NCBI GenBank assembly: GCA_027296045.1
Contig: JAPUJS010000481.1
Span: forward strand, 1-15,785
DNA from: a bacterium
GTDB taxonomy: Bacteria > Latescibacterota > UBA2968
DNA length: 15,785 nucleotides
Reading direction: 5' to 3'
Part shown: positions 44-14,096 of the stretch, in pieces
Numbering within the stretch: the first letter of the stretch is position 1
How the letters are laid out: every line of letters starts with the position of its first letter
Notes under the pieces: generated by a model
What the model was told of the DNA's origin: nothing
Databases searched by the model: none
The model's input: the letters and a program-made list of their open reading frames with translations, nothing else
Program-made: the position numbers and the translations under genes

Positions 44-58
44 TGGCATACGCCTTGC
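44..58 (+). promoter_or_regulatory. Candidate sigma-54 (RpoN) -24/-12 promoter for the pspA operon
   Basis: TGGCAT-acgcc-TTGCG (GG at -24, GC at -12, 5-nt spacer) fits the TGGCAC-N5-TTGCW consensus. It lies about 75 nt upstream of the pspA ATG. An AT-rich tract (11-40) that could be a bending site lies upstream. psp operons in Enterobacteria are sigma-54 dependent. Confidence 0.6.
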
Positions 59-134: not shown

Positions 135-812
135 ATGGCACGTGGAATCTTTTCAAGAATGGCTGACATCATCAGGGCCAATGTCAATGAACTCGTCACC
201 CGGGCGGAAGACCCGGAAAAGATGATCCGACAAATGATTCTGGAAATGGAAGAGGCCGTTAACAAAGCCACCGCCTCGGTCGGAACCGCCGTGGCCAACG
301 AAAAACGTCTGGAACGGCAGCATCTGGAAAAACAAGACCAAATCGAAGCCTGGCAAAGCAAAGCCGAGCTGGCCGTTGAAGCCGGCGAAGACGACCTTGC
401 CCGACGCGCACTGGAACGCAAATCTGCAATTCAGGCTGCTGTCCAGGACCTGGAAGCCGCCCTGGATGAAAGCAAAAAGACGTCGTCCCAGCTCAAACAG
501 CAGCTCACCCAGCTCAAGGGCAAACTCGACGAAGCCCGCACACGCCAGGTCGCCCTCGTTGCACGCCGTCGGGCTGCCGAAGCACGCAAGCAAATCGCCA
601 AGAGTATAACGGGCGTGGGCGACGATGCCTTTTCCAGTTTTGACCGCTTCCGTCAGCGCATTGAAGCCGAAGAGGCCGAAGCCGAAGCCCATCAGGAAAT
701 CGCCGGTGCCGAACCTTCCCTCGACGACGCCTTTGCCAAACTCGAGCGCAAAAGCTCCGTGGAAGACGAACTCAAAGCCCTGAAAGACAAGATGGGAAAG
801 AAAAATGCGTGA
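135..812 (+). CDS. pspA: Phage shock protein A (PspA/IM30 family, ESCRT-III-like membrane remodelling protein)
   Basis: The N-terminus MARGIFSRMADIIRANVNELVTRAEDPEKMIRQMILEMEEAV closely matches the canonical PspA start [40 protein letters not shown]. The protein is 225 aa, helical, coiled-coil rich and charged. An RBS GAGGAG lies 8 nt upstream. Confidence 0.9.
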   Translation: MARGIFSRMADIIRANVNELVTRAEDPEKMIRQMILEMEEAVNKATASVGTAVANEKRLERQHLEKQDQIEAWQSKAELAVEAGEDDLARRALERKSAIQAAVQDLEAALDESKKTSSQLKQQLTQLKGKLDEARTRQVALVARRRAAEARKQIAKSITGVGDDAFSSFDRFRQRIEAEEAEAEAHQEIAGAEPSLDDAFAKLERKSSVEDELKALKDKMGKKNA

Positions 813-1512
813 TCTAGAAAAACTCGCCGACAAGATCGTCTTCGAAGTTGACAGGGCGGTTCGAGAGGTTCAAGATAAAATAGACCGTACGGTCAAACGA
901 GCAGAACAGAAAGTCAGGAAAGCGGAGCGCAGAACACAGCGGGTGTGGGAGTCGCAACCCGACTGGAGTGAATCCCGGACAGTTCGTGACTTCCAGACCG
1001 CTGCCACCAAAATTAAGAAATTCCCCACCCGCATCTCTGACCTGGCCACCGATGGGAGCTGCGCCATGCGATATCTATTTTCCTACTGTCTGAAAGGTTG
1101 GGCTTTCTGCCAGGGATTCGGCGGTCTCATGCTCGTCGCAATCACACTGGCAACCTCTGAACATCCCTGGCGCCAAGAAGAAATCAGTATTGGCCTGGTA
1201 CTCCTTGCCACCTCACAGGTTCTCTGGTGGATCGGTCAGCGCGTGAACAAATCCGCCGACCAGAAAGCCTACGCCCGCGATCAGCATCGCATCTTACGCC
1301 TTGCCCGCGAAAAAGGCGGCAACCTCACCGTCATCGAAGCCGCTACCGACGGACGGATGACCACCGAAAAAGCCGAAGAAATCCTGAGAGAACTGGCTGT
1401 ACAAGGCCACACCGAAGTCCGTGTCACCGACTCGGGCGTGATGGTCTACCACTTCCCAGAAATTTCCCGCTGGGATGAAAAACAGTGGGCCCGACCGGTT
1501 GACGAACTGTAA
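805..1512 (+). CDS. Membrane protein with N-terminal coiled-coil region, two predicted TM helices and a C-terminal winged-helix-like domain. Possible PspA partner or anchor.
   Basis: The start ATGCGTGA overlaps the pspA stop by 8 nt, which suggests translational coupling. Hydrophobic stretches are GFGGLMLVAITLATS and ISIGLVLLATSQVLWWIG. The C-terminus LTVIEAATDGRMTTEKAEEILRELAVQGHTEVRVTDSGVMVYHF has a wH-like pattern. No confident family assignment. Confidence 0.6.
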   Translation: MRDLEKLADKIVFEVDRAVREVQDKIDRTVKRAEQKVRKAERRTQRVWESQPDWSESRTVRDFQTAATKIKKFPTRISDLATDGSCAMRYLFSYCLKGWAFCQGFGGLMLVAITLATSEHPWRQEEISIGLVLLATSQVLWWIGQRVNKSADQKAYARDQHRILRLAREKGGNLTVIEAATDGRMTTEKAEEILRELAVQGHTEVRVTDSGVMVYHFPEISRWDEKQWARPVDEL

Positions 1513-1523
1513 GGGAGAATCCC

Positions 1524-1727
1524 ATGGACATGGACCTGATTTCGATTGGCTTGATGGTCGCCCTGATCATCCTGGCCTCAGCCGTTCACAAATACGTCGA
1601 CCGGCGCACCAAAGGCTCCATCCCCTCCGAAGCGGAAGAACGATTGATGGACCGGATGAATGAACTCGAACGCAGACTCACCGACATTCAAGATGTGATG
1701 CTCACCATTGACGATAAGCTCAATTGA
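1524..1727 (+). CDS. PspB-like small membrane protein, paralog 1 (N-terminal TM, C-terminal conserved helix motif)
   Basis: 67 aa with TM ISIGLMVALIILASAV. The C-terminus SEAEERLMDRMNELERRLTDIQDVMLTIDDKLN resembles the E. coli PspB tail SEQQRLAQLADEAKRMRERIQALESILDAE. RBS AAGGGAG. Confidence 0.7.
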   Translation: MDMDLISIGLMVALIILASAVHKYVDRRTKGSIPSEAEERLMDRMNELERRLTDIQDVMLTIDDKLN

Positions 1728-1744
1728 AGCTAAGGGAGGACACC

Positions 1745-1954
1745 ATGCTTGGCATCACCATGATGATCGTCATCATCATGCTCGCTTCAGCCGCCTGCAA
1801 ATACGTGGACCGGAAAACCCGCCATTTCGGCCCCTCCGAAGCGGAAAAACGACTGATGGACCGAATGGATGAACTCGAACAAAGGCTCACCGATATTCAA
1901 GACATCATGATCGCTATAGATGACAAGATGAGCCGGCCCGAAATGAAAATGTAA
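1745..1954 (+). CDS. PspB-like small membrane protein, paralog 2
   Basis: Start at ATG 1745 (RBS GGGAGGA 6 nt upstream; the track ORF begins at TTG 1724). TM MMIVIIMLASAA. C-terminus SEAEKRLMDRMDELEQRLTDIQDIMIAIDDKM. About 70% identical to paralog 1. Confidence 0.7.
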   Translation: MLGITMMIVIIMLASAACKYVDRKTRHFGPSEAEKRLMDRMDELEQRLTDIQDIMIAIDDKMSRPEMKM

Positions 1955-1979
1955 AAGCGTCTAAAGGAGGGAACCAAGC

Positions 1980-2225
1980 ATGTCACATGAAATTATACGC
2001 ACCGTCTTGGCCGGCATCGTCACGATCATCCTGTCCTCCGGACTTTGTTATTATATCGTCGAGCGTGCAAAATCAAGACCCTGGAAATCCGGCAAAGCCC
2101 CCGACGTGGAAAAACTCGAACAACGCCTCAAATCCTTGGAACAGCGCCTCACTGATATCCAGGACATTGTTCTCTCCATTGACGATCAACTAAAACGCTC
2201 GTCCGGCATTCCCCTTGAGAAATAA
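1980..2225 (+). CDS. PspB-like small membrane protein, paralog 3
   Basis: 81 aa with TM VLAGIVTIILSSGLCYYIV. C-terminus VEKLEQRLKSLEQRLTDIQDIVLSIDDQLKR. RBS AAAGGAGGG. Confidence 0.7.
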   Translation: MSHEIIRTVLAGIVTIILSSGLCYYIVERAKSRPWKSGKAPDVEKLEQRLKSLEQRLTDIQDIVLSIDDQLKRSSGIPLEK

Positions 2226-2237
2226 AGGTCTGATCCC

Positions 2238-3083
2238 ATGAACAAATACCTTCTGTCCATCCTGGGAATCCTGCTCTCCATTTCGCACATCGAAGCCTAC
2301 GAAGGCCTCGACCTGTCGGCCCAAGATATTGCCCAGTTGTCAGCCGTTGGTGTCACTCCCGAATACGTCCAGCAAATTCAACAACTGGGCTACAAAGATA
2401 TCTCTGCCCATGATATTACCCAACTCTATGCCGTTGGTGTGAAACCAGACTACATACGACAAATACGCAAGCTGGGTTATAAAGATATTTCTATCCACGA
2501 CATTACCCAACTCCACGCCGTTGGAGTCAAACCAGACTATGTGAGACAAATCAAAGACCTGGGCTATAAAAACATTTCCATCCACGACATTACCCAACTC
2601 CACGCCGTTGGGGTCAAACCAAACTATGTGAGACAAATCCAAAATCTCGGTTACGACGATATCTCTATCCATGATATCACACAATTTTATGTAACCGGAG
2701 TAACGCCCGACTATATCAAAAAAATGAAGGGCTCAAAAACAAAAATACATATTCCCGAAATCAAAGTGGACGTGCCCAATATCCAGGTTCATATCCCTGA
2801 AATCAAAGTGAATGTCCCACATATTCAGGTTCATGTCTCTGGAGTACAACATACGCGGTCGAACCCATCACGATGGAAAAATGCAGCAAAAATTGCTGGC
2901 TTGAGTTTTCTGGTTCTCGGCATCGGCTTTGCAGTCTATAAACTGAAAGATCCATATCCTGCACCACCCGAAAAACCGGATATAGAATCCCGAATTACCG
3001 AGTTTGAACAACGTGTCACAGACCTTCAGGATATCTTGATCTCCATTGATGACCGATTAAATCGACAATTGAAACATAACTAA
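2238..3083 (+). CDS. Repeat-rich membrane protein: signal peptide, 5x 29-aa tandem repeats, 2x approximately 16-aa repeats, a single TM, and a PspB-like C-terminal motif (paralog 4)
   Basis: The N-terminus MNKYLLSILGILLSISHIEA looks like a signal peptide. The 29-aa repeat DISIHDITQLHAVGVKPDYVRQIKDLGYK occurs five times, and HIPEIKV(D/N)VP(N/H)IQVH occurs twice. TM IAGLSFLVLGIGFAVY. C-terminus RITEFEQRVTDLQDILISIDDRLNRQ. Nucleotide-level tandem repeats span 2390-2690. Confidence 0.75.
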   Translation: MNKYLLSILGILLSISHIEAYEGLDLSAQDIAQLSAVGVTPEYVQQIQQLGYKDISAHDITQLYAVGVKPDYIRQIRKLGYKDISIHDITQLHAVGVKPDYVRQIKDLGYKNISIHDITQLHAVGVKPNYVRQIQNLGYDDISIHDITQFYVTGVTPDYIKKMKGSKTKIHIPEIKVDVPNIQVHIPEIKVNVPHIQVHVSGVQHTRSNPSRWKNAAKIAGLSFLVLGIGFAVYKLKDPYPAPPEKPDIESRITEFEQRVTDLQDILISIDDRLNRQLKHN

Positions 3084-3106
3084 TTTGATCTTTGGAGGGA
3101 CATCCC

Positions 3107-3436
3107 ATGAAATTTCTGTTCCAGCTTGCACTCTGTATCTGTCTGATCATCCTCACGGCAGGAACCATTGGATTTGTTATAGAAGATGGGGACTTTTTTT
3201 CGGGTGGCATCATGCTGATTGTGGTCTGGAGCATTATGTTCGCAATGCTCAAAAGAGCCCTTATTTTTGGTCAATCGGATCAAACCGATTCTGTCAAACA
3301 GGAATGGGCGGACCGCATCACCACCCTTGAAAAACGCCTCACCGACATCCAGGACGTCGTCATCGCGATCGACGATAAGTTGACACGTCAGGAATTCAGA
3401 TCCGATACGACTGTCCGTTCAAAAGAAGAAGCCTGA
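3107..3436 (+). CDS. PspB-like membrane protein, paralog 5 (two TM helices plus the conserved C-terminal motif)
   Basis: Start ATG 3107 with RBS GGAGGGA 6 nt upstream (the track begins at TTG 3092). TMs LALCICLIILTAGTIGFVI and IMLIVVWSIMFAML. C-terminus ADRITTLEKRLTDIQDVVIAIDDKLTRQ. Confidence 0.7.
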   Translation: MKFLFQLALCICLIILTAGTIGFVIEDGDFFSGGIMLIVVWSIMFAMLKRALIFGQSDQTDSVKQEWADRITTLEKRLTDIQDVVIAIDDKLTRQEFRSDTTVRSKEEA

Positions 3437-3498
3437 TACGGGATGGCGCCAAATATACCTCAACATTTACTCTGGCATCAAAGAGAAAGGACCTGTTG

Positions 3499-3669
3499 AT
3501 GCTTATCAAAATTCTCGGCATTGTCTTCATGATCGTCGGAGGTGGCATGGCCCTGGGAATCCTGTTCCCCCTTATTGGCTCCATTTTCGGACTCTTGTGG
3601 CTGGCCCTCAAACTGGCTATCGCCCTCGTCTTCGTCTACGTCGGTCACCGGCTCTTTTCTCAAGACTAA
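3499..3669 (+). CDS. Small (56 aa) two-TM membrane protein, PspG-like. Not in the supplied ORF track, probably because it is under the apparent 61-aa cutoff.
   Basis: ATG 3499 is preceded by AGAAAGGA. The product MLIKILGIVFMIVGGGMALGILFPLIGSIFGLLWLALKLAIALVFVYVGHRLFSQD is entirely hydrophobic with a GGG turn. Its length and pattern loosely resemble E. coli PspG (LLFVIGFFVMLMVTG...LPWLLLAIAVVWVI). It lies inside the psp-like cluster. Confidence 0.5.
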   Translation: MLIKILGIVFMIVGGGMALGILFPLIGSIFGLLWLALKLAIALVFVYVGHRLFSQD

Positions 3670-3758
3670 TTTCGACCCATACCGGTATGGTTGTGTATCT
3701 CACAACCACGTGCAAAGGTGAATCGCGAACACCTTTGCCACACAAATAAGGATGTACC

Positions 3759-4340
3759 ATGTCTCGTTCCAACGACCAAGCCCTCATTCGCAAAGCGCTC
3801 AAAGGCGATCATCAAGCCTTCGAAACGCTTTATAAAGCACACTACCCCCAGATCTATGGGGTCATTGCCCAGCGAGCAAATGATCGCGATCTGATCGATG
3901 ACCTGGTGCAAAACACCTTCATGCGGGCGTTCCGATCGTTGCACACCTTTAAAGGCAACGCCGCTTTCTCAACCTGGCTCACCCAGATCGCCCTCAATGT
4001 GTACCGATCCCATCTTCGGTCCAAACAGGCCCGACAAAACTGGCTGATCGAAACCGAAGACCCCGAGCTTGTCCCGGGCATCATTCGAAACGTTTCTGCC
4101 TTTGACGATCCGGAACAATCCATGCAGAACAAAGAACGCACCGCCCTCATCCGAAAAGGCATCCAGTCTTTGCCCGAACGATATCGAGAAGCCATGTGGT
4201 TGCGCTATGTCAAAGACTGGTCTTACGAAGAAATTACCCATGCCCTTCAGGTGCCTATTGGCACCGTCAAAACCTGGCTTTGCAGAGCCAGGCGTCAACT
4301 GGCCGGAGAATTTCGCAAGATGGGACTCCAACCCGTTTAA
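3759..4340 (+). CDS. ECF-family RNA polymerase sigma-70 factor (sigma-24/RpoE-like)
   Basis: 193 aa. Region 2 is DLVQNTFMRAFRSLHTFKGNAAFSTWLTQIALNVYRSHLR. Region 4 is LPERYREAMWLRYVKDWSYEEITHALQVPIGTVKTWLCRARRQL. Typical ECF architecture. Confidence 0.9.
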   Translation: MSRSNDQALIRKALKGDHQAFETLYKAHYPQIYGVIAQRANDRDLIDDLVQNTFMRAFRSLHTFKGNAAFSTWLTQIALNVYRSHLRSKQARQNWLIETEDPELVPGIIRNVSAFDDPEQSMQNKERTALIRKGIQSLPERYREAMWLRYVKDWSYEEITHALQVPIGTVKTWLCRARRQLAGEFRKMGLQPV

Positions 4341-4395
4341 ACTTGACGGTGGGGTCATTCTGTCCCTATCTTGCCCAATAATAAGGAGGCCGACT

Positions 4396-5001
4396 ATGGA
4401 AGCCTGGTGGGTCGGACTTGCACCCCTGAACCAGATGCTGTATTCTGTCGCCATCTTTTTCAGCATTTTGTTCCTCTGGCAGTTCCTGAGTGCTTTAATT
4501 GGACTGGGCGGCAGTTCGGACTTCGATGTCGCCGAAACCGGTGCCAGTGAACTGGGCCCCGAAGTAGATGACGGATTTCACGAAAGTGGTATTGCCACCT
4601 TCAAATTGCTCTCCGTCCGATCCGTCATCGCCTTTGGGATGCTCTTCGGCTGGGCAAGTGCCCTCTACCTTGAATCGGGCCTGGACCTCTCAGCCGCTGG
4701 ACTTCGGGGCATCTTCTGGGGTACAGCTGGAATGGCGCTGGTTGCCTATTTTTTCTACAAAGTCCAGCGGCTCACCGAAACCGGTAACCTCAAACTGGAA
4801 ACCTGTGTCGGCACCGATGGCGAAGTTTATATCGACATTCCCCAAAACGGAGCCGGTCAAATCCGAGTAATCGAAAGCGGGGTTGTCAACTATGTATCTG
4901 CCCGAAGCAAAGGGGGGAACGCCATCCCGAACAAAACCTCTGTTCGCGTTCTGAAAACCCTCGATATGACCACAGTGGAAGTCGAACCCACCCATTCCTA
5001 A
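4396..5001 (+). CDS. NfeD-like membrane protein (short NfeD/YuaF family; N-terminal TM helices plus C-terminal OB-fold)
   Basis: Start ATG 4396 with RBS AAGGAGG. The TM-rich N-terminus carries the C-terminus GTDGEVYIDIPQNGAGQIRVIESGVVNYVSARSKGGNAIPNKTSVRVLKTLDMTTVEVEP, typical of the NfeD OB domain. It sits immediately upstream of a flotillin gene, as in yuaF-floT operons. Confidence 0.8.
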   Translation: MEAWWVGLAPLNQMLYSVAIFFSILFLWQFLSALIGLGGSSDFDVAETGASELGPEVDDGFHESGIATFKLLSVRSVIAFGMLFGWASALYLESGLDLSAAGLRGIFWGTAGMALVAYFFYKVQRLTETGNLKLETCVGTDGEVYIDIPQNGAGQIRVIESGVVNYVSARSKGGNAIPNKTSVRVLKTLDMTTVEVEPTHS

Positions 5002-5021
5002 ATCCATCTTCGCCCAGCCTT

Positions 5022-5061
5022 CAGCCGTCTGCTCTCCTGGCCTGGCAAGAGCAGACGGCTG
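5022..5061 (+). other. Perfect 14-bp stem-loop between nfeD-like and flotillin genes (intercistronic hairpin, not a canonical terminator)
   Basis: CAGCCGTCTGCTCT - 12-nt loop - AGAGCAGACGGCTG. Followed by GAGCGCTGAGCGCC and a 4-T run; no real U-tract. Confidence 0.5.
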
Positions 5062-5105
5062 AGCGCTGAGCGCCATTTTCTATCCCAATCGGAGGGGAGG
5101 GTCTT

Positions 5106-6755
5106 ATGCCCATCGAGATGATTCTCATCATCGGACTCGCTGCGGTTGTTGTTCTGCTTTTCATTACTTTTATTTCTCGCTACAAACGCTGTCCGTCCAA
5201 TAGAATCCTGGTCATTTATGGCAAAACCGGTACCGGCACAGCGGCCAAATGCATACACGGAGGTGCCGCCTTTGTAATTCCCCTCCTGCAGGACTATGCA
5301 TATCTCGACCTGGAACCCTTTGTGGTTCCCATCGACCTGGACAACGCATTGTCCCAGGAGAACATCCGTGTCTCGGTGCCCACCACCGTTACAGCGGCCA
5401 TCTCCAATCAGCCCGGCATTATGCAAAATGCGGCCGTTCGCCTTTTAGGACTCAGCCGCCAGCAGGTGCAAAGCCAGGCCCAGGACATCATCCTCGGTCA
5501 GATGCGGGCGGTGATTGCCACGATGCAAATTGAGGAAATCAACCGGGACCGCCAGGGCTTTATGAGCAAGGTCAACGAAGCGGTGTCGACCGAGATGGAA
5601 AAAATCGGCCTTACCGTTATCAACGTAAACATCAAAGATATCGATGACGAAAGCGGCTATATCACAGCCATTGGCCGGAAAGCCGCCGCCGAGGCCGTCA
5701 ACCAGGCCGCCATCGATGTGGCCGAACAGGAAAAAATGGGCAAGGTGGGTGTGGCCGAACGGGATCGCGACCGCCGAAAAGCGGTTGCTGCCGCCGAAGC
5801 CAGTGCCGATATTGGCGAATCGGAAGCCGAACGGGAAAGACGTCGACAGGTCGCCGCACTGAACTCCGAAGCAGAAATCGGCGAATCGGAAGCCGAACGG
5901 GAAAAACGCCGACAGGTTGCCGCATTAAACGCCGAAGCAGAAATCGGCGAGGCAGAAGCCGGACGGGACAAACGGCAGCGCGTGGCATCTCTCGAAGCCG
6001 AGGCTGTCCAGACAGAATCCGAAGCGGACGCCAAAAAAGCCGGGTATCTGGCCAACCAGCGTGTGGCCGAGGAAAGTGCCCGACGCAAAAGCGAAGAAGC
6101 CTCCAAAGCGGCTGACGGTGCCATCCGGGTTGCCCAGGAAAATGCGCAAAAAGAAGCCGAAGAAGCCAGAGCGCTTCGCGAAGAAGCCCGTCTGAAAGCC
6201 GAAGTCGTGGTCCAGGCCGAAGCAGAAAAACAGCGTCAGATTGTGGAAGCCGAAGGCGAAAAAGAACAACGACGCCTGGTTGCCGAAGGCGAAGCCGCCG
6301 CCATTCTTGCCCAGAAAGAAGCCGAAGCCAAGGGAACCCAGGCGATCCTGGATGCCAAGGCCGAAGGTTATCGAAAAATGGTCGAAGCCTGCGACCACAA
6401 CGATCAGGCTGCTGCGGCCTTTCTCATTATTGAACGCCTCACCGAAGTCGCCCACATTCAGGCCGAAGCCATCCGCAACCTGCCCATCGAGAAGATCATG
6501 GTCTGGGACAGTGGCAACGGGGAAAGTGGTATGTCCAACCTGGGCCAGCGGTTGATGGGGGCGATTCCCCCAATGCACGATCTGGCTCGCCTGGCCGGAC
6601 TGGAATTGCCCGAATTCCTGGGTAGACTAACCCAGAAAGAAGACGGGGCCACTGGAAATAACCGGACCGGGGAAAAAACAGAAACGCAGGTCGAAAACCA
6701 GGATGCAGCCCAGGATCAGACAGGCGAGACGACAAAAACAGGCGGGGAAGCGTAA
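5106..6755 (+). CDS. Flotillin (SPFH/Band-7 family, FloT/YuaG/YqiK-like)
   Basis: 549 aa. N-terminal TM IIGLAAVVVLLFITFI, then an SPFH domain (RILVIYGKTGTGTAAKCIHGGAAFVIPLLQDYAYLDLEPF...). Long E/A-rich coiled-coil repeats (EAEIGESEAERERRRQVAALN x3) and a conserved C-terminus IIERLTEVAHIQAEAIRNL. RBS GGAGGGGAGGG. Confidence 0.9.
   Translation: MPIEMILIIGLAAVVVLLFITFISRYKRCPSNRILVIYGKTGTGTAAKCIHGGAAFVIPLLQDYAYLDLEPFVVPIDLDNALSQENIRVSVPTTVTAAISNQPGIMQNAAVRLLGLSRQQVQSQAQDIILGQMRAVIATMQIEEINRDRQGFMSKVNEAVSTEMEKIGLTVINVNIKDIDDESGYITAIGRKAAAEAVNQAAIDVAEQEKMGKVGVAERDRDRRKAVAAAEASADIGESEAERERRRQVAALNSEAEIGESEAEREKRRQVAALNAEAEIGEAEAGRDKRQRVASLEAEAVQTESEADAKKAGYLANQRVAEESARRKSEEASKAADGAIRVAQENAQKEAEEARALREEARLKAEVVVQAEAEKQRQIVEAEGEKEQRRLVAEGEAAAILAQKEAEAKGTQAILDAKAEGYRKMVEACDHNDQAAAAFLIIERLTEVAHIQAEAIRNLPIEKIMVWDSGNGESGMSNLGQRLMGAIPPMHDLARLAGLELPEFLGRLTQKEDGATGNNRTGEKTETQVENQDAAQDQTGETTKTGGEA
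5811..6008 (+). repeat. Three tandem approximately 66-nt in-frame repeats inside flotillin (22-aa EA-rich coiled-coil units)
   Basis: ATCGGCGAATCGGAAGCCGAACGGGAAA(G/A)ACG(T/C)CGACAGGT(C/T)GCCGCA... repeated, with the third copy more diverged. Confidence 0.8.
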
Positions 6756-6824
6756 GGCGTGAAACAGATATTGCGCCAATAACTTCTCAACCGCACACCC
6801 ATTTTTAAACAAAAAATCACAAAA

Positions 6825-6916
6825 GGCCACGAAGTCCAACCGCTCCCTTCCGGGAGCAAAGGTGGGTTTCGTGGCCCTTCGTGAAAGGAAAGGGTCGGAG
6901 TCGAGGCCCTTCGTGA
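6825..6916 (+). promoter_or_regulatory. Structured intergenic region upstream of the histidine kinase gene: a hairpin plus reiterated TTCGTG motifs
   Basis: GGCCACGAAG...(nested CTCCCttccGGGAG)...TTTCGTGGCC forms a hairpin with an approximately 10-bp stem. The direct repeats GGCCCTTCGTGA appear at about 6873-6884 and 6905-6916. Confidence 0.4.
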
Positions 6917-6946
6917 TCCCGCTCTTTACCGAATGAATATGTAGCC

Positions 6947-8581
6947 ATGTCCAACCTCAAAACCGAAACCCACCAGCCCCCTCGGCCTTCCGACCAGATC
7001 GAAATTGCTCGGGAACTCCCGGAATCGTCGAACCCCGAAGCAAGTCGGTTTTCCAGACAGGGGGATGTCGCCCTCAAAAACGGGGACCTGTCCGAAGCAG
7101 TCAAAGCCTATCAAAAAGCCGTCAAGGCCGATCGCAACGACCTTCGCTCTCACCACAACCTGGGCGTGGTTTCCTACCAGCAGGAAAACTGGGAAATGGC
7201 GCAATCCTACCTGGACCGCTGCGTTCAACTTGCCCCCGAAGACTCCGATTTGCTCTTCAAACAGGGCCTGTGTGCCTTGAAACAAAATCGACGTGAAGAG
7301 GCATCCAGAGCCTTTTCCAGTGTCCTGAAATTGGACCCCGACCATCTGCGTTCCCGGTTTCAAGTGGCCCTCCTGCACGCCCGTGGAACGGCCACCGTTT
7401 CCAGAGATCGGCAAAAAGCGATTGAAAACCTGGAATACATCCTGGAGGCCTGCGGCCGGGGCGTGTCCTTCCAGAACCTGGACCGCGTCTGTTTTCTTCT
7501 GGGCAGTTTTCTAGACGACCACCCCGACAATCGCGACCAGGCCATTGCCGTCTATCGACGGGGGCTCGATGTAGATCCCTTTTTCGCCCCGGGTCACAAC
7601 AACCTGGGCGTACTTTTGATGCAAGACGGACAAACACTTCCTGCCCTGGGGGCTTTCAAAATCGCTGTCCAGCTCGAACCCGACTACACCCTGCCCTATG
7701 GCAATCTCGCTCGCCTCTTGTTTGACCATATGAGTCCAACCCAGATGGAGCAAGAATTTGGGTCCATCGTAGACGAGTTTGGTATTCAAGCACCGTCTGT
7801 CCTCGTCCAGCTTTCCCTGGAACTCATCGACCTGGGACGCGGGCAGGTCTACGAAAGCCTTTATACCCACGGCCACCGCATCAAAAACTTGATGGGCATG
7901 TCTGGCGCCCGAATGCGGCGTCTGATTCGCGATTTCCCCCAGGATGCGCACGGCCTGGATGAACTTCAAAGCATTGCCCACGACCAGGAACAGATCTTCA
8001 ACCAGTGGGTCGCCTATCTCCGGTCGATGAAACAGGGGACAATGAACCTCACCCTGGTTGACGTGTCCCAACTCGTTCATAAAACCACCGGCGGCCTGTC
8101 TGCCCAGGCCGGATCAAAAACCCTGCACTTTGCATCCGAAACCCGGGTTCCCCAGGTCAAAGCAGATGCCGGTATGCTTCGGGAAGCCGTGACCAACCTC
8201 ACCCTCAATGCCCTGCAAGCCGTAGAGGAAGAAAGCGGCAAAGTCACCGTTCAAGTGGGACACGATCCATTGCGCGCCTCCGTTTATATCGAAGTCGAAG
8301 ACAACGGACCTGGCATCCCTGATGCCCAACAAGCCCGGATCTTCGACCCCGGTTATACCACCCGTCAAAACGGCAACGGCTACGGCTTGAGCATCTGTGC
8401 CCGAATCGCCTCCGCACACCGGGGCCACCTGCGCCTGATCAGCCAGCCGGGAGCCGGAGCAGTCTTTCGCATCGACCTCCCGATCGACTTTGAAGTGTCT
8501 GCCCAGGAAGACACCATTGGTCTCCAGCGTTCTGTTGCAGACGTTTCCACCGATCCGGTGACCGAAGAATTCGTTCTATAA
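6947..8581 (+). CDS. Soluble sensor histidine kinase with an N-terminal TPR-repeat domain and a C-terminal HATPase_c
   Basis: TPR-like repeats (AVKAYQKAVKADRNDLRSHHNLGVV; WEMAQSYLDRCVQLAPEDSDLLFKQGLC). N-box LREAVTNLTLNALQA. G1 VEDNGPGIP. G2 GNGYGLSICARI. No TM segment. Candidate H-site SIAHDQEQIFNQ, which is non-canonical. Confidence 0.8.
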   Translation: MSNLKTETHQPPRPSDQIEIARELPESSNPEASRFSRQGDVALKNGDLSEAVKAYQKAVKADRNDLRSHHNLGVVSYQQENWEMAQSYLDRCVQLAPEDSDLLFKQGLCALKQNRREEASRAFSSVLKLDPDHLRSRFQVALLHARGTATVSRDRQKAIENLEYILEACGRGVSFQNLDRVCFLLGSFLDDHPDNRDQAIAVYRRGLDVDPFFAPGHNNLGVLLMQDGQTLPALGAFKIAVQLEPDYTLPYGNLARLLFDHMSPTQMEQEFGSIVDEFGIQAPSVLVQLSLELIDLGRGQVYESLYTHGHRIKNLMGMSGARMRRLIRDFPQDAHGLDELQSIAHDQEQIFNQWVAYLRSMKQGTMNLTLVDVSQLVHKTTGGLSAQAGSKTLHFASETRVPQVKADAGMLREAVTNLTLNALQAVEEESGKVTVQVGHDPLRASVYIEVEDNGPGIPDAQQARIFDPGYTTRQNGNGYGLSICARIASAHRGHLRLISQPGAGAVFRIDLPIDFEVSAQEDTIGLQRSVADVSTDPVTEEFVL

Positions 8582-8611
8582 TCCTTGCAGGCGTTTCTAC
8601 CGATCCGTTCG
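8536..8611 (+). repeat. Imperfect direct duplication of the histidine-kinase 3' end
   Basis: TTGCAGACGTTTCCACCGATCCGGT...GTTCTATAA (in the gene) versus TTGCAGGCGTTTCTACCGATCCGTTCGTTTTATAA (just downstream). Confidence 0.7.
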
Positions 8612-8641
8612 TTTTATAACCCTATTTGGAAAATTTCATCA

Positions 8642-8693
8642 ATCGATTTATCTTGTATCGATCGACTTGTCTTGTAAATCGACTTATCTTGTT
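8642..8693 (+). promoter_or_regulatory. Three tandem 16-bp direct repeats ending exactly at the response-regulator start codon
   Basis: ATCGATTTATCTTGTA (8642-8657), ATCGACTTGTCTTGTA (8661-8676), ATCGACTTATCTTGTT (8678-8693). The ATG is at 8694. Confidence 0.75.
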
Positions 8694-10103
8694 ATGAATA
8701 AACAAATTCTTGTTGCAGACGACCAGATTGAAGTTCTCGATATGCTCATCCGAAGCCTTCAGGCCGATGAGCGAGACGTCCAGGCCTTTTCCACCGGAAG
8801 GGAAGCCCTCGTCTATCTCCAGCAACACCCATCGGATGTGGACATGGCCATTCTGGATCTGGATTTTGGCCCCGACGAGCCCGATGGCCTGGAGATCTTG
8901 CAGCAAATGCGGGACGAAATCCCCGACCTGCCCGTCATCATCCTCACCGGACAGGGCACCATTGATACGGCCGTGGCTGCCCTGAGACTGGGTGCGGTGG
9001 ACTTTATCGAAAAAGACTTCTATATTGAAGATAAAATCGAGATCAGTCTGGAAAAGCTGGACCGGATGCTCACGGCGCTCCGGGAAAACGCCCGGCTCAA
9101 GGTTGAGGTCCAAAATTTGGACCGGGAAAACCAGCTTTACCGATCGGAATTCGGCAAGCGCTACCGCGTAATCGGCGACAGCCCCCAGTGGCAACAGGTC
9201 CTGCGCCAGGCCGAACAAATTGCGTCCATTCCCCGACCTGCCCTCATCCTGGGCGAGCCCGGCACGGGCAAAGAACTGGTTGCCGCTGCCATTCACTATG
9301 GAGGGGTGCGCAAAGATCGCCCTTTTGTAAAAGTCAACTGCGCCGCCCTGTCCGACCAACTCCTGGCAAGTGAACTCTTCGGGCATGAGAAAGGCGCTTA
9401 CACGGGTGCTACAGAAGCCCGCATCGGCAAATTTGAAGCCGCCAATGGCGGTACGATTTTCCTCGATGAAATAGGAAATACCACCCCGGGATTTCAGCAA
9501 AATATCCTTCGGGCCATCGAATATCAGGAAGTTCAGCGCGTTGGATCGGCAACCCCGGTCTCTGTAGACACCCGGGTGATTGCCGCTACCAACGCCGACC
9601 TGGAAAAAGAAATGGCCGAAGGCCGTTTTCGCCAGGACCTCTACGACCGCCTGCGTTTCGAAGTCATTCGAATGCCCCCCCTCCGAGAACGCCGGGAAGA
9701 CATCGCAGACCTGGCCAATTTCTTTGTTGCACAAATCACCGAGGAAGTCCCCGGACTCCAGGTTCGACCGTTCTCGGATGAGGCCCTGAAAAATCTTCAA
9801 ACCTACCACTGGCCCGGCAATGTACGGGAACTCAAGTTTGCCGCCGAACGAGCCGCCTGTGTGGCCACCGGTTCTCAAATCGAGCCCGGTGATTTGCCGC
9901 CCGAAATCGCCGGCGATGTTCCGATTGTCTCCTCCGGTGAAGGATATGAAGCCCAGATCAGAGCCTTCGAACTGGGCCTGCTCAGACGGTCGTTGAACGA
10001 AACCGTCTGGAACCAGCGGGAGGCGGCCAAAAAACTCAAGCTCAGCTACGACCAGTTCCGGCATCTGTATCGAAAATACAAACTCAATCGTGAGAAACCC
10101 TAA
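8694..10103 (+). CDS. Sigma-54-dependent response regulator (NtrC family: receiver + AAA+ sigma-54 interaction domain + Fis-type HTH)
   Basis: Receiver MNKQILVADDQ...DMAILDLDFG...LTGQGTIDTAVAALRLGAVDFIEKD. Walker A GEPGTGKE. The GAFTGA-type loop ELFGHEKGAYTGA. ESELFG and RERREDI motifs. C-terminal HTH WNQREAAKKLKLSYDQFRHLYRKYKL. Start chosen at 8694; an in-frame ATG at 8667 is also possible. Confidence 0.9.
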   Translation: MNKQILVADDQIEVLDMLIRSLQADERDVQAFSTGREALVYLQQHPSDVDMAILDLDFGPDEPDGLEILQQMRDEIPDLPVIILTGQGTIDTAVAALRLGAVDFIEKDFYIEDKIEISLEKLDRMLTALRENARLKVEVQNLDRENQLYRSEFGKRYRVIGDSPQWQQVLRQAEQIASIPRPALILGEPGTGKELVAAAIHYGGVRKDRPFVKVNCAALSDQLLASELFGHEKGAYTGATEARIGKFEAANGGTIFLDEIGNTTPGFQQNILRAIEYQEVQRVGSATPVSVDTRVIAATNADLEKEMAEGRFRQDLYDRLRFEVIRMPPLRERREDIADLANFFVAQITEEVPGLQVRPFSDEALKNLQTYHWPGNVRELKFAAERAACVATGSQIEPGDLPPEIAGDVPIVSSGEGYEAQIRAFELGLLRRSLNETVWNQREAAKKLKLSYDQFRHLYRKYKLNREKP

Positions 10104-10114
10104 ATAAAAGTATT

Positions 10115-10223
10115 CAGGAGACAGAAGACAGGAGACAGGAGCCGCTCCACTCATCCGCCCAGGAGAAACAAAGGCGGGGTTGGGTGGGGCTCCTGTATTC
10201 TGTCTCCTGTCTCCTGTCTCCTG
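10115..10223 (+). repeat. Long imperfect palindrome built from (CAGGAGACA)n on the left arm and (TGTCTCCTG)n on the right arm. Possible terminator or translational control element.
   Basis: Left arm CAGGAGACAGAAGACAGGAGACAGGAGCC and right arm GGCTCCTGTATTCTGTCTCCTGTCTCCTGTCTCCTG. The approximately 45-nt loop contains a nested CCGCCC/GGCGGG stem. It ends 7 nt before ATG 10231 and is followed by ATTTCTT. Confidence 0.7.
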
Positions 10224-10230
10224 ATTTCTT

Positions 10231-11817
10231 ATGCTACACCCCAAAACCCCCAAACTCAGCCTCCGGACCTGCTTTTTCGACAGCTTCACCTTGTGGGTGA
10301 ACCACATCCCTGTCCTGTTTATCGCCACCTTTCTCACCTTCTTCCTCAGCTCGATTACCTTCACCTTGTTTATGGGCAGTCTCTACGCCGGCTTGCTGAT
10401 GATGCTTTTACAAGGCCTGCGCGGGGAGAAGCCCATTTTACGAGACCTCTTTGGCCAGTTTCGTCGCTTCATCCGCTTTTTCTCCATTACCCTGTTTATC
10501 TTGCTCTTCTTCATTTTCGGGCTTGCCCTCCTGGCCGGACCGCTTTTTTTTCTTTCCAATACCGAAATTCCATCCGAGATCCTCCAGGAAATCGAAGCCG
10601 GGATGCAAGAGGAAGGCATTCACCTTCGCCCCAGAGAAATTCTGCAATTTGTCAAAAACAGCGATTTTCTTGTCCCCGCCATCCTGATCACATTCTGCTT
10701 TATCGTGCTTCCTGGCATTTTTTTTATTGTCAAATGCTTCTACATGTATCTCCTGGCCGCCGACCGGGGCGTTCACCTGGATGAAGCTTATGTCGAAAGC
10801 CGAAAAGCCGTTGAGAGATACGGGTTCCGAAAGCATTTTTTTCTTATTTTTGCCGCCCTGGCCATCTTCTTCGGAAGCGATCTGATGGTTCGCAAAATGA
10901 CCGATGTCCCCATCGCCGAATTTTTTCCGCTCTTTGTCTTCCCCTTTGCCGTGGGCCTGTTTGTTTCGGCCTACCACCAGACCTTAGAAGCTGAAGCCCG
11001 ACAATCTCAGTTTTATCGCGAAGAGTTTGAAGTCATGCGCGACGAACTCCAGACCGCCCATGACATGCAAATGGAGCTGCTTCCCGATGAAAGCCCCGAA
11101 CTCTCCGGGTTCTCCCTGGATGGAACCTGCATCCCGGCCAATAACGTGGGCGGCGATTATTTCGCCTATCGCTGGCTCGATACAGAAAAAACGCGGCTGG
11201 CCATCCTGGTTGCCGATGTCTCCGGAAAGGCGATGGAAGCCGCCGTCACGGCCCTTCGCTTCAACGAAATGCTCCGATATGAATCTCGCGCCCGGATCGA
11301 TCCGGGCGAAATCCTGGATGGATTAAACGATTCGCTGGAAGGACAGATCGACACCGATACCTTTATCACCTGTGTGATTGGCGTCCTGGATATCACAGAC
11401 AATATCATTCACATTGCCAACGCCGGTCACTGTTTCCCCTATCACTACCGGGACCGAGATCAAAAAGCCGTCCCGGTTAATCTCACGGGCTGCCCGCTCG
11501 GCCTGCCCGCCATCATTCGGCCGGAAGAGCCGTATGAAACCCGTCAGGTCAAACTCGAACCGGGTGATATGATCGCCTTCTACTCCGACGGGGTGGTCGA
11601 AGCCCAGAATGCCCGGCACGAACTGTATGAAGATGAGCGCTTTGAAAAACTCCTGGAAACCATTGCGCCGGGAGCAAAACCAGACCGGGTGGTTCGAGCC
11701 GTTGTCCGGGAAGTCAATCAATATATCGGAGATGCCCCACGAACCGACGACGTCACCATTGTGGTTTTAAAACGGGACGGCCAGAGCGGCCCGGCAAACG
11801 ATTCGGAAACACCCTGA
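10231..11817 (+). CDS. Polytopic membrane PP2C-family (SpoIIE/RsbU-type) serine phosphatase
   Basis: An N-terminal hydrophobic domain of about 250 aa with 5 or more TM segments, then a coiled-coil linker. PPM domain motifs: GGDYFAYRWL, LAILVADVSGKAMEAA, ANAGHCFPY, GDMIAFYSDGVVEAQN, DDVTIVVLK. No SD upstream (see the palindrome), so the exact start is uncertain. Confidence 0.8.
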   Translation: MLHPKTPKLSLRTCFFDSFTLWVNHIPVLFIATFLTFFLSSITFTLFMGSLYAGLLMMLLQGLRGEKPILRDLFGQFRRFIRFFSITLFILLFFIFGLALLAGPLFFLSNTEIPSEILQEIEAGMQEEGIHLRPREILQFVKNSDFLVPAILITFCFIVLPGIFFIVKCFYMYLLAADRGVHLDEAYVESRKAVERYGFRKHFFLIFAALAIFFGSDLMVRKMTDVPIAEFFPLFVFPFAVGLFVSAYHQTLEAEARQSQFYREEFEVMRDELQTAHDMQMELLPDESPELSGFSLDGTCIPANNVGGDYFAYRWLDTEKTRLAILVADVSGKAMEAAVTALRFNEMLRYESRARIDPGEILDGLNDSLEGQIDTDTFITCVIGVLDITDNIIHIANAGHCFPYHYRDRDQKAVPVNLTGCPLGLPAIIRPEEPYETRQVKLEPGDMIAFYSDGVVEAQNARHELYEDERFEKLLETIAPGAKPDRVVRAVVREVNQYIGDAPRTDDVTIVVLKRDGQSGPANDSETP

Positions 11818-11842
11818 ACACCCCTGTATTCCAGAGGCATTT

Positions 11843-13012
11843 ATGAACGATACGGAAAACCTGATCCTGATCCACTATCACGAAATCGGCCTGAAGGGGA
11901 AAAATCGAGGCCGATTCGAACGCCAGCTCCAGAGCAATATTAACCGTGCCCTGAAAGGCCTCAGCCGGGGACCGGTCCAACGTCTGTACGGACGTATCAT
12001 CCTGAAGTTGAAACCCGATTCCCCAATCGGCGTGATTCGAGACCGCCTGACTGGCATTTCCGGCATCGCCAATTTTTCCGAAGCCATCCGTGTTCCAAAA
12101 GAGATCGAAATCATCCGGGAAACGGCCTGGGCGGTGGCCCAGAAAGCCACCTTCGAATCCTTTCGAATCACCACCAAGCGGGGCGACAAATCCTTCCCGA
12201 TGCTCTCCGAAGAAGTCAACCGGGATGTGGGCGCTTATATTCAGGAACGTTTAAACGCCCGGGTCCAACTGGTTGGCCCCGACCTGACCTGCTACATTGA
12301 AATCACTCAGGAAGACGTCTTTATCTACGCCGAAAAAGTCTCTGGTCCCGGCGGCTTGCCCGTTGGGACCGGAGAACGCGCCTTAAGCCTCCTTTCTTCG
12401 GGCCTGGACTCGCCGGTCGCCTCCTACAAAATGATCAAGCGGGGAGTGCGCCTCTCCTTCGTCCATTTTCACAGCCAGCCCTATACCAATCGTAACTCCC
12501 AACGCAACACCGAAGAACTGGTTCGACTGCTCACACAGTATCAGTTCAAATCGACACTCTACCTGGTCCCCTTTGTGGAAATCCAGCGTCATATCATGAG
12601 GAACGCCCCGGAGAACTACCGTGTCATCCTCTACCGGCGTTTCATGTTCCGCATTGCCGAAACCCAGGCCAACCAGGAAGGAGCGCTTGCCCTGGTTACC
12701 GGCGAAAGCGTAGGCCAGGTCGCTTCTCAAACCCTCGCTAACATCAAAGCCATCGAGGAAGTCACGCTCCTGCCCGTGTTGCGTCCCTTAGCCGGTGACA
12801 ACAAAGATGAAATCATCGACGAAGCCAGGCGCATTGGCACCTACGACATCTCCATCGAACCCTACGAAGACTGCTGTTCGGTCTTTGTGCCCAAACACCC
12901 CGAAACCCGGGCCGATCTGGAGAAAGTCCATAAAATCGAAGCGGAGCTGGAACTCGATGAAATCTTGCGGCAAACCTTGAGGCAAACAGAGGTCAAAACA
13001 TTTAAGCTTTAA
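11843..13012 (+). CDS. thiI: tRNA 4-thiouridine(8) synthase ThiI (short form without rhodanese domain)
   Basis: N-terminal ferredoxin-like and THUMP region (LILIHYHEIGLKGKNRGRFE). PP-loop LSLLSSGLDSPVASY. 389 aa with no C-terminal rhodanese extension. Confidence 0.85.
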   Translation: MNDTENLILIHYHEIGLKGKNRGRFERQLQSNINRALKGLSRGPVQRLYGRIILKLKPDSPIGVIRDRLTGISGIANFSEAIRVPKEIEIIRETAWAVAQKATFESFRITTKRGDKSFPMLSEEVNRDVGAYIQERLNARVQLVGPDLTCYIEITQEDVFIYAEKVSGPGGLPVGTGERALSLLSSGLDSPVASYKMIKRGVRLSFVHFHSQPYTNRNSQRNTEELVRLLTQYQFKSTLYLVPFVEIQRHIMRNAPENYRVILYRRFMFRIAETQANQEGALALVTGESVGQVASQTLANIKAIEEVTLLPVLRPLAGDNKDEIIDEARRIGTYDISIEPYEDCCSVFVPKHPETRADLEKVHKIEAELELDEILRQTLRQTEVKTFKL

Positions 13013-13133: not shown

Positions 13134-14060
13134 TCATCCGCTTGTATTGCCTTGAGACTTCTCCCATTTTTCCTTCCCCCCGTAGGCCTCGAAAATCGCC
13201 TCCAGCAAATATCGAATCGCCGGACCGAAATACCGTCCACGGCGCCAGGCTACGCCGATTTCTCGGCTGAATGAAATGCCTGCCACCTTCACTTCCGTCA
13301 ACAGCTCCGATTCCAGAGACTCTTGAACTGCCAGGTGTGGCAAAAACGAAATCCCCACCCCCACTTCTACCAGCTTCCGCATCGCTTCCGGACTTCGCAT
13401 TTCCATCACCACGCCCGGGGACACGCCTGCTTCCGCAAACCGTTCGTCCACCACCTTTCGCGACACAGAATCGGCGTGAAACAGAATCAGAGGTTCCTTC
13501 ACCACCTCTGCAAGCGTGACTCGTTTCCGTTTTGCAAACCCGTGATTTGCCCCGACCACCAGCGGCATCGAATCCCGGTAGATGGAAACTGTCTCCAAAC
13601 GCTCGTGCTCGAATGGTAGTGAGATCACCGCAAATTCTGACCGATTCCACAACAAATCTTCTACCAGATACCGGGTGGGCTCGACCTGTACGGAAAGGGA
13701 CACCTCCGGATAGTCTCGCATATAATCCTTCAAAATATCCGGCAGCAAATACGTCACCGCCGCATCAATTGCGCCAAATTGGAACCCTTCGCCGGGCAAC
13801 ACGTCTCGCCGGTTCAAGTGATGGGTTGCTTCGTCCACCAGATCCTGCACTTGCATTCCATACTTCACCAGCGTCCTTCCCTCCATCGTCAGCGACACCT
13901 GTCGCCCCGACCGATTGAACAGCCGCACTCCCAGCCCTTTCTCCAGCTCGCCGATCCCCGCACTCACCGTTGGCTGTGTCACGTGCATCTCTTCTGCCGC
14001 CCGACTGAAACTTCCTGTCCGGGCCACCGCCAGCAAATACTGCAAATGGTGTAAGGTCAT
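13134..14060 (-). CDS. LysR-family transcriptional regulator
   Basis: N-terminal HTH MTLHHLQYLLAVARTGSFSRAAEEMHVTQPTVSAGIGELEKGLGVRLFNRSGRQVSLT plus a C-terminal substrate-binding domain. 308 aa. Confidence 0.9.
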   Translation of the reverse strand: MTLHHLQYLLAVARTGSFSRAAEEMHVTQPTVSAGIGELEKGLGVRLFNRSGRQVSLTMEGRTLVKYGMQVQDLVDEATHHLNRRDVLPGEGFQFGAIDAAVTYLLPDILKDYMRDYPEVSLSVQVEPTRYLVEDLLWNRSEFAVISLPFEHERLETVSIYRDSMPLVVGANHGFAKRKRVTLAEVVKEPLILFHADSVSRKVVDERFAEAGVSPGVVMEMRSPEAMRKLVEVGVGISFLPHLAVQESLESELLTEVKVAGISFSREIGVAWRRGRYFGPAIRYLLEAIFEAYGGKEKWEKSQGNTSG

Positions 14061-14096
14061 CCCACTCTCCTGGGCAAATCTCCAGCGCCTCGTATT

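Follow-up and report, generated by a model that had tools for sequence, protein, structure and literature searches.

Membrane repair by the phage shock protein (Psp)/IM30/ESCRT-III system is, to our knowledge, universal, but only three model wirings of its control are understood, namely PspF, LiaFSR and ClgR. The control of pspA by the sigma-54 activator PspF and the control of a PspA homologue by the two-component system LiaFSR are textbook examples. Comparative surveys of Psp systems have reported PspF, membrane-bound kinases with receiver-helix-turn-helix (HTH) regulators, and NtrC-like factors that carry ACT and PAS domains, and the psp activator described in the Desulfovibrio sigma-54 regulome has no N-terminal domain. 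Here, we describe a locus from an uncultured member of the Latescibacterota in which pspA is followed on the same strand by genes for a soluble tetratricopeptide repeat (TPR) histidine kinase and a receiver-type sigma-54 activator. The stretch analyzed, hereafter the window, is the whole contig JAPUJS010000481.1 of 15,785 nucleotides (nt), in which the genes from 135 to 13012 all lie on the plus strand.

We consider it probable that the kinase-activator pair is a two-component regulator dedicated to a psp-like operon specific to the Latescibacterota and is switched by an operon-encoded ligand. As general knowledge of two-component systems would suggest, the soluble kinase would autophosphorylate on His310 and transfer the phosphate to Asp55 of the activator receiver. 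Activator dimers would bind two TGGyG-N5-CrCCA inverted repeats located ~112-128 bp upstream of the pspA -24/-12 promoter, and the enhancer-bound activator would oligomerize on phosphorylation, its GAF/YTGA loop and ATP opening the sigma-54 closed complex. The outcome would be the induction of pspA and its membrane partners and, in compact operons, also of the kinase and the activator, which would create positive feedback. We are highly confident of this output side, from the phosphorelay to the sigma-54 activation of pspA. The input side is more weakly founded: the kinase would be switched by a protein or peptide ligand from the same operon, with free PspA, the shared tail of several small membrane proteins and the winged-helix domain of a protein of 235 amino acids (aa) as candidates, and membrane damage would alter the amount of ligand available to the TPR. 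That the TPR ligand is one of these Psp-associated proteins is a plausible proposal, of which we are less than confident. Overall, control would have shifted from the PspA-activator contact of Escherichia coli PspF to a phosphorelay.

Conserved linkage of the kinase-activator pair to pspA

The kinase belongs to a tight family of ~100 database clusters with 40-70% identity. A scan of one genome per species revealed 105 kinase relatives, and 80 loci of ~20 kb each (numbered with the prefix L; ~1.7 Mb of locus sequence in total) were retained, the gene content of which was scored by tblastn with the window proteins. Nearly all of the 80 species-level genomes were from Candidatus Latescibacterota, and a few were metagenome-assembled genomes (MAGs) labeled Gemmatimonadota or Planctomycetota. 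The latter (L009, L020, L022, L047, L058, L067 and others) carried the same operon at the identity levels found among the Latescibacterota, and their taxonomic labels may be wrong.

The activator gene was directly downstream of the kinase gene in 78 of the 80 loci, the remaining two ending at a contig edge, and pspA was upstream of the kinase gene on the same strand in 77, the remaining three being cut upstream. We found two operon types. The long type resembles the window and occurs with or without modules for an extracytoplasmic function (ECF) sigma factor, NfeD-flotillin and a PP2C phosphatase; the minimal type consists of pspA, the partner protein, a tail protein, a protein with two transmembrane segments, the kinase and the activator. 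The minimal-operon kinases were 41-47% identical to the window kinase, and the genes flanking these operons were unrelated to those of the window. The constant gene set is therefore pspA, its membrane partners and the kinase-activator pair. Two insertions were observed among the loci surveyed: in L002, a STAS-domain (anti-sigma-antagonist-like) gene (7285-7647) was inserted after the partner protein gene, and in L003, two insertion sequence transposases (6046-8583) lay between the partner protein and tail protein genes.

Because the linkage is 100% where testable, across 80 species and two architectures, and is accompanied by a conserved promoter and enhancer, the comparative sequence evidence supports a role of the pair dedicated to pspA over one in, for instance, nitrogen control. 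The sequence-only reading had named an unrelated regulon, such as nitrogen, as the contrary outcome; the complete pspA linkage and the conserved control region described below oppose it.

Sigma-54 promoter and tandem enhancer upstream of pspA

A sigma-54 (-24/-12) promoter, TGGCATACGCCTTGC, was present at 44..58 on the plus strand, 90 nt before the pspA ATG. This TGGCAT-N5-TTGC element is the only exact match to TGGCA-N6-TTGC in the window, where 0.17 would be expected by chance. Of 83 pspA upstream regions, 82 contained exactly one GG-N8-TTGC, situated 62-138 nt ahead of the ATG, and the lone miss was a contig end. The promoter that had been proposed at this position from the window alone is thus a conserved element.

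Upstream of the pspA promoter, we found two TGGyG-N5-CrCCA inverted repeats, offset by 21-22 bp from center to center, in all 80 regions of sufficient length. The tandem site reached a score of at least 15 of 20 in 80/80 regions and at least 17 in 64/80, compared with 3% and 0.6%, respectively, of 3000 random control windows taken from these loci. The -24 GG lay 112-115 bp from the first repeat in 43 loci and 122-128 bp in 35 loci; these two classes differ by about one helical turn, as would be expected if looping depends on the helix face. The stretch between the enhancer and the promoter is AT-rich and possibly of the integration host factor (IHF) type.

A composite of the tandem site and a sigma-54 promoter within 220 nt was then sought in all loci and on both strands. 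At the strict threshold, it was found at pspA in 58 loci, with only four other matches. Two of these were the same palindromes read backwards, and one, in L021, had no downstream gene and was rejected as a probable chance match. In L004, which has a minimal operon, a second and more divergent pspA (13341-14069) directly followed the activator gene and had its own tandem enhancer and sigma-54 promoter (13169-13346). In the window, matches to the enhancer motif were at chance level and within genes only, and 43 bp of contig precede the -24 element, which leaves the pspA enhancer region outside the contig. An exact-sequence look-up of the window PspA, aimed at the upstream DNA, returned no record, and an Rfam scan of the window gave no match.

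A soluble kinase with a TPR sensor

The kinase gene (6947..8581, plus strand) encodes 544 aa. Its TPR solenoid comprises residues 30-261 (7034-7729), followed by the dimerization and histidine phosphotransfer (DHp) region at residues 264-359, in which the His310 codon is 7874-7876, and the catalytic and ATP-binding (CA) domain at residues 369-512. Pfam matches to TPR_1, TPR_2, TPR_8, TPR_11 and other TPR families were above their cut-offs, HATPase_c matched residues 407-513 (E-value 1.3e-23), and no domains beyond TPR and HATPase_c were present. No membrane segment was found in 19-residue Kyte-Doolittle windows (maximum mean 1.23, threshold 1.6). The AlphaFold2 model, built on 24 orthologues with a mean predicted local distance difference test (pLDDT) score of 80, revealed 13 TPR-type helices at residues 30-261 that pass, with no linker domain, into a 66-residue helix (264-329), followed by a return helix (337-359) and the alpha/beta ATP-binding CA domain. 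In Foldseek comparisons, the N-terminal half resembled the consensus-TPR and OGT TPR superhelices, and the C-terminal half resembled the DHp-CA structures of ZraS and HK853. The claim that this kinase has no transmembrane segment and an all-TPR sensor, made from the sequence alone, is therefore borne out by hydropathy, the Pfam TPR families, the modeled solenoid and Foldseek.

The H-box, GH310RIKNLMG, is located on the long helix and was invariant in the 24 aligned orthologues, as were N417/N421, D452-G454-G456, F466 and G476-G478-G480 of the N, G1, F and G2 boxes. The NtrB profile of NCBIfam aligned from residue 309 onwards, and the best NCBIfam matches of the kinase were AtoS and ZraS, although all specific scores were far under the cut-offs. 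As judged from its sequence and model, the kinase is of class I (HisKA-type), with a DHp hairpin that carries the H-box histidine and a CA domain that carries the nucleotide-binding boxes.

The best-conserved part of the TPR region was residues 135-300, whereas the three N-terminal repeats were variable, or absent in short forms of the kinase. In the 24-orthologue alignment, Asn218 and Asn253 were invariant, with "HNLG" at TPR position 6; we take these asparagines to match the position in the OGT-type TPR groove that binds extended peptides. Since the TPR superhelix is the only sensor of the kinase and its groove asparagines are conserved, a protein or peptide ligand is likely.

The C-terminal tail of the kinase (residues 515-544; 8489-8578) is disordered and ends in a conserved P-x-(A/T)-E-E-F-(I/V)-(E) motif. 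Such a motif is not usual downstream of a CA domain and is reminiscent of the EEVD-type ligands of TPRs. The acidic tail was found in the long-operon clade, including its short kinases, and was missing from the minimal-operon clade. Co-variation of the tail with the N-terminal TPRs, as in an EEVD-like clamp, was considered and rejected, because short kinases lacking those repeats still carry the tail.

Operon-encoded candidates for the TPR ligand

The first gene of the operon and the proposed target of the activator is pspA (135..812, plus strand), which encodes a PspA/IM30 protein of 225 aa (PF04012, E-value 1.4e-45); its score against TIGR02977 was 185 bits, below the cut-off. The pspA stop codon is overlapped by the gene for the 235-aa partner protein (805..1512, plus strand), which is translationally coupled to pspA. 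Its AlphaFold2 model (pLDDT 83) showed a transmembrane helical hairpin between a long helix at the N terminus and a winged-helix-like domain at the C terminus, the latter with weak fold matches to MarR and ESCRT-II. Since PspA is a member of the ESCRT-III superfamily and ESCRT-III is nucleated by the winged helices of ESCRT-II, the weak ESCRT-II match is suggestive. The partner family is clade-restricted, has no Pfam match and adjoins pspA in most loci. The partner protein is a candidate anchor or signal transmitter of PspA and may be equivalent to the "PspAA" partner domain described in the literature.

Five paralogous small membrane proteins follow on the plus strand (1524-1727, 1724-1954, 1980-2225, 2238-3083 and 3092-3436). 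They differ in their membrane and periplasmic parts, and all end in the same cytoplasmic motif, R-L-T-D-I-Q-D-x-x-I-x-I-D-D-K-L. Orthologous operons contained one to five copies, and the family comprised 244 members, all from this clade, with no Pfam model. These tail proteins are candidate sensors or TPR ligands. They had been described as PspB-like, which did not hold as a family assignment: PspB (PF06667) gave no match even at an E-value of 10 or less, and the resemblance to PspB is limited to the architecture of one transmembrane segment and a cytoplasmic heptad helix. In the tail protein encoded at 2238-3083, a signal peptide is combined with five periplasmic repeats of 33 residues arranged in tandem (ISxHDITQLxAVGVKPDYxRQIxxLGY), after which come short IPEIKV/NIQVH repeats. 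A similar repeat domain occurs in L002, where it is encoded by an open reading frame (ORF) of its own at 8061-8465. We found neither the tail family nor the partner family outside the clade, so PspA binding and TPR binding could not be separated in this way.

A further proposal, which we put forward tentatively and regard as unlikely, is that the TPR kinase acts as a hub, reading a "tail code" common to the small membrane proteins through the binding of their RLTDIQD-type tail helix in its TPR groove. PspA might compete for the tail helix, and its recruitment to the damaged membrane would free or occupy the tails and set the kinase activity. If this were true, many envelope sensors would converge on one kinase, and a ligand-gated, membrane-recruited soluble kinase would replace the PspBC-PspA-PspF logic.

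A receiver-type sigma-54 activator distinct from PspF

The activator gene (8694..10103 within the ORF 8667-10103, plus strand) encodes a response regulator with a receiver, a sigma-54 AAA+ domain and a Fis-type HTH, as identified by Pfam, motifs and orthologues. Its start is likely the ATG at 8694, because the orthologues begin with MNKQILVADD. Pfam revealed Response_reg (ORF residues 14-121), Sigma54_activat (E-value 1.1e-62) and AAA_lid_14, and the AAA+ core contained Walker A (GEPGTGKE), the GAYTGA loop (residues 234-239) and Walker B (DEIG). Among 84 activator orthologues, receiver residues D9, D10, D55, T85 and K107 were invariant or present in all but one, the arginine fingers R313 and R319 were invariant, and the loop was GAFTGA in 65 and GAYTGA in 19. 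The predicted phospho-acceptor Asp55 is encoded by codon 8856-8858. The HTH recognition helix, LSYDQFRHLYRKY (residues 450-462), was nearly invariant, which fits the conserved enhancer half-sites with which we match it. The profile alignments of ZraR and GlrR reached residues 450-464 with the Fis-type HTH, and HTH_8 matched weakly in the orthologues, with no match at an E-value of 0.01 or less for the window activator. From these sequence features, the activator has an NtrC-class architecture with a receiver pocket, an AAA+ core and a Fis-type HTH. It is the sole sigma-54 activator in the window, and the sequence-only reading was correct that the only enhancer-binding protein of the locus carries a full receiver with the conserved Asp, as evident from the Response_reg match and the conservation of Asp55.

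In the NCBIfam ranking of the activator, the PspF model came first, closely followed by NtrC, NifA and AtoC, all below their cut-offs. The scores were 341 bits for TIGR02974 (PspF; cut-off 443.55, covering profile positions 1-231 of 336, the AAA+ core only), 280 bits for PRK11608 (PspF; cut-off 529), and 335, 323, 308 and 272 bits for the equivalogs NtrC, AtoC, ZraR and GlrR (cut-offs 558.6, 714, 760 and 763, respectively). The top rank of PspF was rejected as a sign of PspF ancestry, since the same model also tops generic receiver-type activators. Against the sequences of solved structures, the AAA+ domain was equidistant from NifA (239 bits), ZraR (237 bits) and PspF (234 bits). When the AAA+-HTH part alone was searched exhaustively against 1.8 billion representatives, the best single-domain relatives were receiver-type proteins of 459-476 aa (302-338 bits), and receiver-less AAA+-HTH relatives of 322-344 aa scored 293-299 bits. 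Bona fide PspF proteins (P0422 and P0443; 464 bits against TIGR02974) reached only 261-265 bits against the AAA+-HTH part of the activator.

The activator is not a PspF orthologue, because its scores are below the cut-offs, it carries a receiver where PspF has no N-terminal domain, the YLW patch of PspF is replaced and its nearest relatives are receiver-type. By its sequence, it is a receiver-type bacterial enhancer-binding protein that was recruited to pspA rather than a PspF to which a receiver was added. The view that it replaces PspF thus stands as to function and fails as to descent, true PspF proteins scoring 261-265 bits compared with 302-338 bits for receiver-type proteins. Likewise, the search did not place the activator with PspF, a clustering that the earlier reading had left to be checked, and instead put it nearer to receiver-type activators.

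Weighing of the proposed regulation

Several points weigh against a dedicated phosphorelay from the TPR kinase to pspA. HisKA was not detected in the kinase by Pfam. In the window, the kinase-activator spacer is an atypical 112 nt, compared with 3-55 nt in the orthologues, and contains three direct repeats of ~17-19 bp (ATCGAyTTrTCTTGT; 8638-8692) just before the activator ATG; this element appears specific to the window genome. The window itself lacks the enhancer owing to the contig end, and we infer from adjacency alone that the activator binds the pspA enhancer. The analysis covered the loci only, and another activator may be encoded elsewhere in the genome. PspA, the tail proteins and the 235-aa protein all co-occur with the kinase, so phyletic patterns cannot choose the ligand among them. 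Finally, all of the organisms are uncultured MAGs that are known from their genes, and the evidence is sequence evidence throughout.

The alternative that survives best accepts that the pair drives pspA and holds that the TPR reads no Psp partner of the operon; the TPR would instead bind unexported pre-proteins, the ECF sigma factor or the acidic tail of the kinase itself, or would serve as a scaffold for dimerization or localization. A TPR is a generic protein binder, the disordered P-x-A-E-E-F-(I/V)-E tail is conserved and of a kind that recalls TPR ligands, and the ECF sigma gene is, in many loci, the immediate neighbor of the kinase gene. However, the minimal-operon clade has neither the ECF sigma factor nor the acidic tail and yet keeps the TPR core at residues 135-300, and the tail persists in short kinases that have lost the N-terminal TPRs. 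Only pspA, the partner protein and the tail proteins always accompany the kinase, and we regard this alternative as unlikely.

Dual control, in which the receiver is phosphorylated and PspA also acts directly on the AAA+ domain as an anti-activator, with the TPR kinase as a second input, appears less likely still. In its favor, the N-terminal region of the window PspA is very similar to that of E. coli PspA. The AAA+ domain of the activator aligns to PspF with no gaps, and the IEY and DRL-F-V signatures are common to both. In PspF, a patch formed by Y51, L52 and W56 docks PspA, with Y51 as the primary contact, and L52C or W56C alone is sufficient to escape PspA inhibition (PMC3791423). This patch aligns to Y202, G203 and K207 of the activator, and across the 84 orthologues, Tyr was present at the first position in 80, Gly at the second in 78, and Arg or Lys at the third in 72, with Trp in none. 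Tyr202, the counterpart of Y51, is therefore retained, but NifA also has Tyr at this position, and the other two residues turn a hydrophobic patch into a basic one. From this comparison, retention of the E. coli mode of PspA inhibition in the same form is unlikely.

The weakest alternative is that the pair is a mere neighbor that controls another regulon (nitrogen, acetoacetate, metal or polysaccharide) while pspA is served by an activator elsewhere, such as a true PspF, and although the kinase is nearest to AtoS and ZraS, the activator is about equally similar to NtrC, AtoC and ZraR, and its closest non-orthologous relative (P0375, 52% identity) lies among polysaccharide genes with no pspA nearby (the contigs of the other outgroup activators being too short to be informative on context), we consider it very improbable given that the specific family scores are all far under the cut-offs, that the pspA linkage persists in 80 species despite complete turnover of the flanks, that no further promoter-enhancer composite was found in the 20-kb loci, and that compact operons pack the pair into the pspA transcription unit.

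Other genes and repeats of the window

All of the remaining genes described here are on the plus strand. A 57-aa protein with two transmembrane segments by hydropathy (3496..3669) has orthologues in both operon types. It is followed by an ECF-type sigma-70 factor (3759..4340; Pfam Sigma70_r2 and r4_2), which is accessory and missing from the minimal operon type, by an NfeD/YuaF-like membrane protein assigned on architecture only (4396-5001), and by a flotillin (5106-6755; Band_7 in Pfam, FloT in NCBIfam). The NfeD-flotillin pair is an accessory module found in part of the clade only. Downstream of the activator, 10231-11817 encodes a membrane SpoIIE/PP2C phosphatase with approximately seven N-terminal transmembrane segments, and many long-type loci likewise had a SpoIIE/PP2C phosphatase gene after the activator. 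Considered with the ECF sigma factor and the L002 STAS protein, this phosphatase may point to a partner-switching branch alongside the two-component one.

A long imperfect inverted repeat with 31-34 nt arms of GGAGACAG units (10108..10230, plus strand) lies directly 3' of the activator and probably marks the end of the transcription unit, a function that we infer. Long imperfect inverted repeats were also observed after the NfeD-like gene (5011-5072) and after the flotillin gene (6817-6884). None of the three matched an Rfam family, and these intergenic repeats may subdivide the operon as terminators, attenuators or processing sites.

Comparison with known systems

The literature searched contained no paper linking Latescibacteria with phage shock, and two comprehensive comparative Psp surveys mention neither the Latescibacterota nor an arrangement of a TPR kinase with a receiver-type sigma-54 activator, which is likewise absent from the Desulfovibrio sigma-54 regulome. 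The components have known counterparts, and their combination at pspA appears to be new.

The locus shares much with the PspF-PspA circuit of E. coli and Yersinia: pspA is the first gene of an operon under a -24/-12 sigma-54 promoter, two predicted activator sites form an enhancer that an AT-rich spacer separates from this promoter, the activator combines an AAA+ core with a Fis-type HTH and is encoded beside its proposed target, and small membrane proteins follow pspA. In contrast to PspF, which has no regulatory domain, the activator described here has a full receiver with an invariant Asp55 and a putative cognate kinase. Its gene is co-directional and located at the 3' end of the operon, whereas pspF is divergent, and the small membrane proteins do not match the Pfam models of PspB or PspC.

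The arrangement is also similar to LiaFSR-LiaIH of Bacillus subtilis, in that a PspA-family effector and its membrane partners would be induced by a dedicated two-component system of the same locus that is probably autoregulated. In LiaFSR, however, a HAMP-containing, intramembrane-sensing kinase (LiaS) is paired with a receiver-HTH protein (LiaR) that acts at a sigma-70 (SigA-type) promoter, while a soluble TPR kinase and a sigma-54 AAA+ activator are found here.

The regulator itself has the receiver-AAA+-Fis HTH structure of NtrB-NtrC, ZraS-ZraR and AtoS-AtoC, with tandem palindromic enhancer sites, and the DHp-CA part of the kinase is most similar to ZraS and AtoS. NtrB is likewise soluble and is switched by a protein ligand, PII. 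The differences are that a TPR solenoid replaces the PAS or periplasmic sensor domain of NtrB, ZraS and AtoS, that the proposed target is pspA, and that the TGGyG/CrCCA half-sites of the enhancer are unlike the NtrC consensus.

As a predicted ligand-binding module, the cytoplasmic TPR superhelix with its conserved groove Asn resembles those of the RRNPP family (Rap, NprR and PlcR), CheR-TPR and OGT. CheR-TPR, for example, binds the C-terminal pentapeptides of receptors (PMC3447774). In the kinase described here, unlike in these proteins, the TPR runs directly into a DHp-CA core. The locus may offer a compact model for how TPR-only sensor kinases receive signals: its operon encodes all of the few plausible ligands, and its output is defined (promoter, enhancer sites and phospho-sites) precisely enough for rebuilding in E. 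coli. Beside the PspF, LiaFSR and ClgR wirings, it would represent a fourth, phylum-wide wiring of Psp control, in which sigma-54 and the enhancer are kept and the sequestration of the activator by PspA gives way to a TPR-kinase phosphorelay.

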